A stretch of DNA of 63,498 nt, counting the filler, from Ferroacidibacillus organovorans (GTDB lineage Bacteria > Bacillota > Bacilli > Alicyclobacillales > SLC66): the NCBI RefSeq assembly GCF_001642725.1. It is 3 parts of 3 records of this genome, joined end to end, with 100 filler letters (N's around TTAATTAATTAA, not from the genome) between each part and the next. Parts side by side here need not be neighbours in the genome. Positions count along the whole stretch, not along the records: positions 22,261 to 44,158 come from NZ_LSUQ01000043.1; 2 more parts are not named here. One strand, given 5' to 3'. The translations under genes and the position numbers were made by a program. Shown here one piece after another: positions 30,851 through 31,047 of the stretch. Each line of letters opens with the position of its first letter. Positions within the stretch are counted from its first letter, which is position 1. The notes beneath the pieces are model-generated. The model saw nothing but the letters and a program-made list of their open reading frames with translations. It was not told the origin of the DNA and ran no database searches.

Positions 30851-30855
30851 ATGCG

Positions 30856-31047
30856 ATGAAACAAAACGGACGGGCGGATGGTGTAGACGCGTGTGACGAT
30901 GCAACCTATCAGACCTTCAGTGAAGTAGAAGAGCGCTTCGAGATTGTGTGGCGACAAGAAGAGAACCCTGACTGGCAAGCGCTCGCGCTTCAGTGTGCGA
31001 GTCTTGTCCTTGTCGCTTTGAGAACCCCTCAGAAAGAGGAAACGTGA
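30856..31047 (+). CDS. Small protein, candidate recombination directionality factor (SprB-like)
   Basis: 63 aa, abuts the att site; FEIVWRQEENPDWQALALQCASLVLVAL pattern resembles SPbeta SprB as I recall it. Confidence 0.5.
   Translation: MKQNGRADGVDACDDATYQTFSEVEERFEIVWRQEENPDWQALALQCASLVLVALRTPQKEET

Follow-up and report, generated by a model that had tools for sequence, protein, structure and literature searches.

A small open reading frame at the stump of a split prkA gene in Ferroacidibacillus organovorans as a candidate directionality factor for the second of two tandem serine-recombinase elements

In Ferroacidibacillus organovorans the gene prkA is split by two tandem non-phage elements with unrelated cargo, each carrying its own large serine recombinase of the SprA family. 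The first gene of the second element, an open reading frame (ORF) of 63 codons, is discussed here as a candidate recombination directionality factor (RDF). The DNA analysed (the window, 63,498 nucleotides, filler included) consists of three contigs of one draft genome (G000, assembly GCF_001642725.1, 98 contigs), separated from each other by N runs at 22161-22260 and 44159-44258, and the locus lies on the middle contig, C43 (window 22261-44158). In Bacillus subtilis prkA is described as sigma-E-controlled and sporulation-specific (PMC9512850), and the G000 genome holds the endospore-former markers Spo0A_C (6.9e-44) and SpoIVA (7.1e-113). The 5' part of the gene (prkA-N) ends, as it stands, with the frame ...ISADEVVV*, and the 3' part (prkA-C) is found on a separate contig, C91, where an open frame covers the PrkA C-domain profile over its full length; since this part lies on another contig, the right end of element 2 falls outside the window. 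Once joined, the two halves are in frame and intact and read ...ISADEVVIAHTNE, the same as in uninterrupted relatives, and there is no second prkA anywhere in the genome. With a serine recombinase, attachment (att) flanks that share a common core and intact host-gene halves, the locus fits the intervening elements of sporulation genes. The features on which the argument depends are the following; the sister genome, G001, is that of another species of the same genus.

26190 to 27068, plus strand: prkA 5' part (prkA-N), 292 codons, matching AAA_PrkA positions 2-278 of 358 (Pfam, E 1.7e-96)
27046 to 27065, plus strand: repeat copy 1, exact 20-bp repeat, core of the left attachment site (attL) of element 1
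27066 to 30850, no strand: element 1, 3,785 bp, of which 27066-30830 has no counterpart in the sister genome (blastn)
29028 to 29246, plus strand: 72-aa ORF, rival RDF candidate for recombinase 1, with a strong Shine-Dalgarno (SD) sequence GAAGGGGGAGGGG and a 68-nt out-of-frame overlap with the 5' end of that gene
29179 to 30822, plus strand: recombinase 1 (rec1), SprA-family, 547 aa (Pfam Resolvase and Recombinase)
30806 to 30880, no strand: predicted right attachment site (attR) of element 1, made of the element 1 right arm and the element 2 left arm, an attP-like palindrome (half-site alignment and folding)
30831 to 30850, plus strand: repeat copy 2, exact 20-bp repeat, holding the SD-like GGTGG
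30856 to 31047, plus strand: 63-aa ORF, candidate RDF of element 2, with codons 1-5 in the predicted left recombinase-binding arm
33741 to 35453, plus strand: recombinase 2 (rec2), SprA-family (Pfam Resolvase, Recombinase and Zn_ribbon_recom); the frame is open from 33441 and the likely start is 33741

Both recombinases show the domain set of the SprA family, homology to SprA of SPbeta and, in the alignment, the invariant Ser and the Cys pairs. For rec1, the alignment with SprA spans 537 aa at 30% identity (E 8e-76), and the best PDB match is the SPbeta integrase 9dxh (7.8e-66); for rec2, identity amounts to 36% with SprA and, across the first 380 residues, to 41% with rec1. Element 2 starts at 30851 and leaves the contig at 44158; synteny with the sister genome indicates that about 58 nucleotides are missing before C91, which contributes a Na+/H+ exchanger gene and brings the element to about 14.9 kb, free of phage genes.

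Element 1 is bounded by an exact 20-bp direct repeat, CCGCCGATGAAGTGGTGGTT, whose identity ends at both borders. This 20-mer occurs twice against an expectation of 0.01, and none of 100 shuffles reached a count of two; a third, diverged copy of the core, CGCGCCTGATGAAATGGTCATCGCG, precedes prkA-C on C91. An earlier note on this DNA had placed the start of the 63-aa ORF 5 bp past the second att copy and its SD-like sequence inside the core, and both statements are borne out, the ORF spanning 30856-31047 and GGTGG lying at 30844-30848, within copy 2 and 7 nt 5' of the ATG. The same note had read a stop/start overlap out of the DNA left by excision of element 1. Indeed, when the sequence is joined in silico at the repeats, with removal of 3,785 bp, the prkA-N frame ends ...ADEVVVMR* and its TGA (30857-30859) overlaps the ATG of the ORF (30856-30858) as ATGA.

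In the sister genome a corresponding arrangement is native. There, prkA is cut at the same place, element 1 is absent, and prkA-N reads ...GTGGTGGTTGCGTGATGAAA...; a 62-aa homologue of the ORF begins at an ATG that overlaps the prkA stop TGA, and the junction, ...GAAGTGGTGGTTGCGTGATGAAACAAAAG..., has the same core with a TGATG stop/start overlap. The element is complete on one contig (11.3 kb) with the gene order of element 2, and in both genomes the ORF is the first gene of the element that also carries rec2. This layout is presumably the simple, original one, with element 1 a later arrival in G000. The G000 arrangement of rec1, repeat copy 2, ORF and downstream transporter gene is in turn bridged by contigs from three independent metagenome studies (X4, 27130-31400; X6, 27072-31400; X7, 28245-31257). 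Contig breaks at 26750 and 27071 were considered as excision junctions and rejected, as they coincide with positions of single-nucleotide polymorphisms. The earlier claim that the ORF becomes coupled to prkA after the first excision thus holds for the stop/start geometry, which exists in the sister genome without element 1; coupling as a process would follow from that geometry. That the ORF is a genuine gene, with coupling to prkA-N as its native state, we regard as highly probable.

That the ORF might instead be no functional gene at all, a chance open frame in G+C-rich DNA conserved through the att arm that it overlaps, deserves consideration. Open frames of this size are common, since 25% of all 63-codon windows in the contig lack a stop; an antisense ORF is open as well; conservation of the first five codons is at the DNA level, owing to the att arm; and codons 6-26 have a dN/dS of 1.57, so that the N-terminal half evolves without constraint. 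Against this, the start, frame and length are kept between the two genomes (63 and 62 codons, with a single one-codon gap), though the ORF region is too diverged for blastn; its flanks are 88-92% identical. Codons 27-51 (EIVWRxExxPDWxALALxCAxLV), 80-150 nt beyond the att arm, form a conserved core in which the differences fall 5/4/14 on the three codon positions, with a dN/dS of 0.145. The most variable site is the sense third position, which is the antisense first position, so it is the sense frame that is constrained and not the antisense ORF. The prkA-N stop/start overlap, moreover, is kept in both genomes by different sequences, ATGA and TGATG. The core is under purifying selection, the ORF appears on these patterns to be a real gene, and a chance frame is very unlikely indeed.

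Comparison of the two genomes also places the ORF within its element. Protein identity is 48% for the ORF, 80-85% for rec2 and 90-96% for six cargo proteins, which makes the ORF and rec2 the two fastest-evolving proteins of element 2; the ORF thus patterns with the recombination module, not with the cargo. Synonymous divergence (dS) is 0.7-1.0 in host genes and 0.10-0.46 in the cargo of element 2, and rec2 has a dN/dS of 0.225. As the dS of the cargo lies below that of the host, all or most of element 2 postdates the separation of the two species or has been exchanged between them. Only the ORF, with a dS of about 0.97 drawn from few codons, resembles the host genes.

The architecture of the att sites provides a link between the ORF and the recombination reaction. 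Six half-sites can be aligned on a common GATGA/A, and a CGTTT(T)GT motif recurs at a distance from the centre of about 20 nt in the right arms of both elements and, inverted, in the left arm of element 2, and of 15-18 nt in both prkA (B) arms. This offset between P and B motifs is of the same kind as the 4-bp P/B shift reported for the SPbeta integrase (PMC11722253). Within the left (P') arm of element 2 lies ATGAAACAAAACGG, the start of the 63-aa ORF with its first codons (codons 1-5); an isolated patch of 41 bp at 30831-30871 is 90% identical between the two genomes because those codons sit in the P' arm. On this site model the junction between rec1 and the ORF would be attP-like and not an attL, and the attL of rec2, composed of the prkA arm and the left arm of element 2, would require that element 1 be gone. 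The order in which element 1 leaves first would follow, as an attL for rec2 would arise only then. In this respect the two-step excision proposed in the earlier note is upheld in part: the site architecture predicts its order and the sister genome displays the coupled state natively, and the cascade as a whole is graded below.

The same junction between the elements is a near-perfect palindrome, with a minimum free energy of -29.0 kcal/mol (z -4.1), a level reached by 1 of 300 dinucleotide shuffles. Folding is unremarkable at the junction left by excision 1 (z -1.0), at the left junction of element 1 (z -0.7) and at the junction of the sister genome (z -0.3). In RNA read through from rec1, the palindrome is predicted to bury the SD sequence of the ORF, with a probability of being unpaired of 0.00, and in every RNA context folded the pairing partner of GGTGG is CCGCC of the core. 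Such pairing fits a need for ribosomes that arrive from upstream, that is, for coupling.

These features bear on the idea that the ORF serves rec1, or both recombinases, as the second member of a rec1 operon transcribed across the att site. In G000 the rec1 stop is only 33 nt upstream of the ORF on the same strand, terminator-like sites show no excess over shuffles (3 against 2.2 expected), and the strong divergence of the G000 ORF from that of the sister genome, with a dN/dS above 1 in its N-terminal part, could reflect adaptation to a second partner. The ORF is, however, present in the sister genome, where rec1 is absent. In addition, rec1 falls in another clade (a 100/100 split), and the ORF is lacking beside its relatives in seven other genomes; the SD sequence of the ORF is predicted to be buried in a rec1 read-through RNA; and rec1 has the 72-aa ORF upstream, with a strong SD sequence and a layout like that of skr and spoIVCA. 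Service to rec1 is therefore distinctly improbable. If the 72-aa ORF is the factor of rec1, each element would have its own pair and the two-step scheme would be coherent. Beyond the cluster to which it belongs the 72-aa ORF has no homologues, and no Pfam family matches it. A motif noticed by eye ahead of it, CATACACAT, was rejected as evidence, its spacing to an ATA being 2 short of the consensus, and a sigma-70 scan of 28800-31300 returned no promoter.

A wider view of prkA comes from a search of 64 genomes of the order. The two halves of prkA are separated in at least 10 of them: 2.9-11.3 kb apart on one contig in G001, G006, G030, G032, G042, G047, G048, G054 and G063, and on two contigs in G000; in G011, G049 and G014 the halves lie at contig ends. 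Eleven loci were analysed, from ten genomes plus the left half from G049, and the short stretches at contig ends L023 (G011) and L025 (G014) were excluded. In all 11 loci the cut falls at the identical codon, between ...ISADE and xMIVAHTNE. Every analysed element carries a SprA-family recombinase, 33-63% identical to rec1 or rec2 (28-29% for the partial one of L024), and the cargo varies widely: a GerA germinant-receptor operon, an M29 peptidase, TauE exporters, NlpC/P60 with a penicillin-binding protein, DUF2161 and thioredoxin-reductase-like genes. In the recombinase tree rec2 groups with the recombinase of G006, a genome of the same family as the host, and rec1 with those of the order's other family; rec1 and SprA sit on long branches. 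Thus, prkA is a recurrent and precise target of serine-recombinase elements in this order. No paper on prkA as a target of serine recombinases or of intervening elements in sporulation was found in a literature search that did not cover subscription journals.

From this anatomy we infer promoter use, translational coupling, binding of rec2 by the ORF product, its function as an RDF and the order of excision. In the simple state represented by the sister genome, transcription from the prkA promoter would run into the ORF, the two frames overlapping, and ribosomes that end prkA-N would stop on the ATG of the ORF and probably translate it. As the RDF of rec2, the product would let the broken gene, once expressed, trigger its own repair in the mother cell. 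In G000, where element 1 has inserted between prkA-N and the ORF, element 1 would excise first by means of rec1, perhaps with the 72-aa ORF; this would rebuild the attL of element 2, remove the palindrome that buries the SD sequence and restore the stop/start overlap. That the 63-aa ORF is the RDF of rec2 is possible, and we hold it tentatively, with a confidence somewhat short of even. The fuller proposal, in which the element would have no sporulation promoter of its own, its RDF would be wired to the stump of the broken gene, and the stacked elements would make an obligatory two-step cascade, is doubtful.

Several observations weigh against the ORF as the RDF of rec2. Some concern its present setting: in G000, 3.8 kb separate it from prkA-N and rec1 lies close in front, so that, with a 33-nt gap and no convincing terminator, nothing stops it from being read with rec1 before excision 1. 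The excised junction was absent from the contigs of all four runs (X4, X6, X7 and X9), a weak negative since contigs drop rare forms, and a simple regular expression found no sigma-E-type match upstream of prkA in any of the 11 loci. Others concern its evolution: besides the high dN/dS of codons 6-26, the ORF is far less conserved than rec2, its proposed partner, and hmmsearch of 691 ORFs of at least 35 aa detected no homologue in the other nine elements, the two own hits being the only ones below E=1. The recombinases of the other prkA elements would therefore work with something other than this ORF. Coupling alone is no mark of an RDF either, as in L016, L017, L018 and L024 the first co-oriented gene, a Pyr_redox_2 (thioredoxin-reductase-like) cargo gene, starts within the truncated prkA tail.

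The homology and fold searches point the same way. A full HMMER search of 1.8 billion representatives gave nine matches, two of them real (one at 98% and the sister-genome protein at 47% identity), so that the family consists of three known sequences confined to the genus; the other seven, long proteins hit in several short stretches, were taken for low complexity without inspection. A word-indexed search of 5.8 billion proteins retrieved only the ORF's own 98% cluster, and Pfam and PHROG assigned it to no family. An alignment scan of genome contigs gave one match (38% over 33 residues, in an unrelated phylum) that was judged spurious. AlphaFold2 (AF2) predicts two helices (15-32 and 40-56) at low confidence (pLDDT 65 and 60), best over residues 31-50; the model had no Foldseek match in the PDB at E<=0.001, and the ESM Atlas offered no usable feature match, its structure search returning generic helical look-alikes. 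The likeness to SprB that the earlier note had drawn did not survive comparison with the SprB sequence itself (yotN, 58 aa, from the SPBc2 record): BLASTP yields no alignment at E<=100 and hhalign a probability of 0.13% (E 0.44), that is, no detectable similarity, and what is shared is size (63 and 58 aa) and two predicted helices. SprB used as a query against the ORF's own genome found no homologue, in a search run without a positive control.

Much of this also favours a further reading, in which the ORF is a small protein with another role in element 2, for example as regulator or partner of the MFS transporter or in some other cargo function, and its overlap with prkA-N is a by-product of being first in the element. 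Indeed, an ordinary oxidoreductase gene is coupled to the prkA-N tail in the same way in the four elements just named, RDF-like homology is lacking, other prkA elements do without the ORF, and the co-oriented MFS gene follows it at a distance of 87-126 nt. This reading is nonetheless rather unlikely, given that the ORF, at 48% identity, diverges with the recombinase and not with the cargo, and that its start is predicted to be built into a recombinase-binding arm. No other small conserved ORF was noticed in the element of the sister genome, where no systematic screen of small ORFs between the two genomes was made.

Small ORFs of the other loci were compared as well. All-against-all BLAST of those in the 11 loci recovered only shadow frames of prkA and of the recombinases, and ORFs overlapping the recombinase starts have no conserved position, their common end point resulting from conserved EDE codons. 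The element of G006, which carries the closest relative of rec2, has a 64-aa ORF (L022, 1753-1947, plus strand) co-oriented with prkA-N and about 130 nt inside the left end; it was examined as a relative of the 63-aa ORF and is unrelated (hhalign probability 0.16%), a positional analogue only.

The remaining genes of the two elements are listed below.

27106 to 28905, minus strand: element 1 cargo, glycosyl hydrolase family 18 protein, 599 aa (Pfam PF00704, E 1.6e-24)
31135 to 32352, plus strand: element 2 cargo, MFS transporter (Pfam), 94% identical to the sister genome, by comparison with which the likely ATG is at 31174
32959 to 33594, minus strand: element 2 cargo, hydrolase of the metallo-beta-lactamase fold (Pfam), 95% identical to the sister genome
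35541 to 36110, plus strand: element 2 cargo, ArsR-type HTH / DUF2087 regulator (Pfam)
36415 to 38319, plus strand: element 2 cargo, oligoendopeptidase F-like (PepF-like) M3 peptidase (Pfam)
38282 to 41958, no strand: insertion of 3.7 kb in element 2, absent from the sister genome (blastn gap)
40091 to 41329, minus strand: DDE transposase gene in that insertion (Pfam DDE_5 / DDE_Tnp_1)
42008 to 43126, minus strand: element 2 cargo, MetE-like gene (Pfam)
43260 to 43907, plus strand: element 2 cargo, MOSC-domain gene (Pfam)

The insertion at 38282-41958 holds two further ORFs without a Pfam family (38558-39181 and 39188-39664, minus strand). On C91, before the right att site of element 2 (L001, 1031-1156), a stretch of about 125 nt is absent from the sister genome; it contains the repeated CATCGCCAGCCCTGCTC, possibly a local duplication. 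Elsewhere in the window, a 9-nt unit, GCTTCTACC, occurs four times at 22123-22158, at the extreme end of contig C42 before the N spacer. The contig joints themselves consist of two runs of 44 N with 12 ordinary letters between them, and the 101-nt family reported there by repeat finders is an artefact of construction.

The means by which excision of non-phage intervening elements is confined to the terminally differentiated mother cell are known for few systems, each with a dedicated sporulation promoter on a small RDF gene. If the present proposal is correct, an RDF driven by the promoter of the interrupted gene would be a simpler, self-correcting design, and the tandem would amount to a DNA switch of natural origin, with two inputs and a set order, made from two related and distinct serine recombinases, which would be relevant to recombinase logic. 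In tandem (composite) islands of the staphylococcal cassette chromosome (SCC) type, a single attachment site likewise holds two adjacent elements whose serine recombinases are related. Unlike the prkA elements, they are not known to split a developmental gene or to need an ordered double excision to restore a frame.

The RDFs of known sporulation elements are small (SprB, 58 aa, PMC4191935; Skr, 64 aa, PMC6957869; GirX, 42 aa, PMC5595907) and are mutually unrelated. As a functional class, the RDFs of large serine recombinases share an element with their recombinase, bind its zinc-ribbon domain or coiled-coil base, turn the reaction towards attL x attR and block attP x attB. A close comparison is with SPbeta, which interrupts spsM in B. 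subtilis and uses SprA and SprB. In the SprB family an essential C-terminal helix packs between DBD2 and the hinge of the coiled coil. The recombinases are homologous, a sporulation gene is split, and an acidic accessory gene of about 60 aa lies at the end of the element next to the 5' half of the host gene (PMC4191935). Two helices are found in both small proteins, at residues 1-13 and 37-58 of SprB (PMC11722253) and, in the ORF, in the low-confidence model; in one non-significant hhalign register the SprB residues L37, F40, A45 and L49, whose alteration kills function, face W40, L43, A48 and L52 of the ORF. There are also differences: the two proteins lack detectable sequence similarity, SprB is described as having sigma-E/K and stress promoters of its own (PMC4191935) and reads outward to the att site whereas the 63-aa ORF reads inward from the host gene, and the elements here are non-phage and two in tandem.

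In the skin element of B. subtilis (SpoIVCA and Skr), excision in the mother cell rebuilds a sporulation gene, as it would at prkA. The skr ORF of 64 aa overlaps the start of spoIVCA with its 3' end by 101 nt in another frame (PMC6957869), and it is the 72-aa ORF before rec1, with its 68-nt overlap, that has this layout; the comparison with Skr is one of layout, not of sequence. The 63-aa ORF differs from it in not being adjacent to its presumed recombinase, the start of rec2 being 2.7 kb away. The gin element in gerE of Bacillus cereus (GirC and GirX) resembles the elements described here in being non-phage, in bearing cargo and in pairing a large serine recombinase with a very small RDF that is an orphan: GirX has 42 aa and no conserved motif (PMC5595907). 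It differs in its host gene and in having no tandem second element; girX is reported as transcribed at T3-T5 of sporulation, and coupling to the split gene is not among the features described for it (PMC5595907). Finally, in skinCd of Clostridioides difficile (CD1231 and CD1234) the timing of excision is set by a small, mother-cell-specific RDF and not by the recombinase (PMC5025042). Timing through the production of a small RDF is likewise what is proposed here; CD1234 is described with its own sigma-E/SpoIIID promoter (PMC5025042), whereas at prkA it would be the promoter of the split gene itself that drives the factor.

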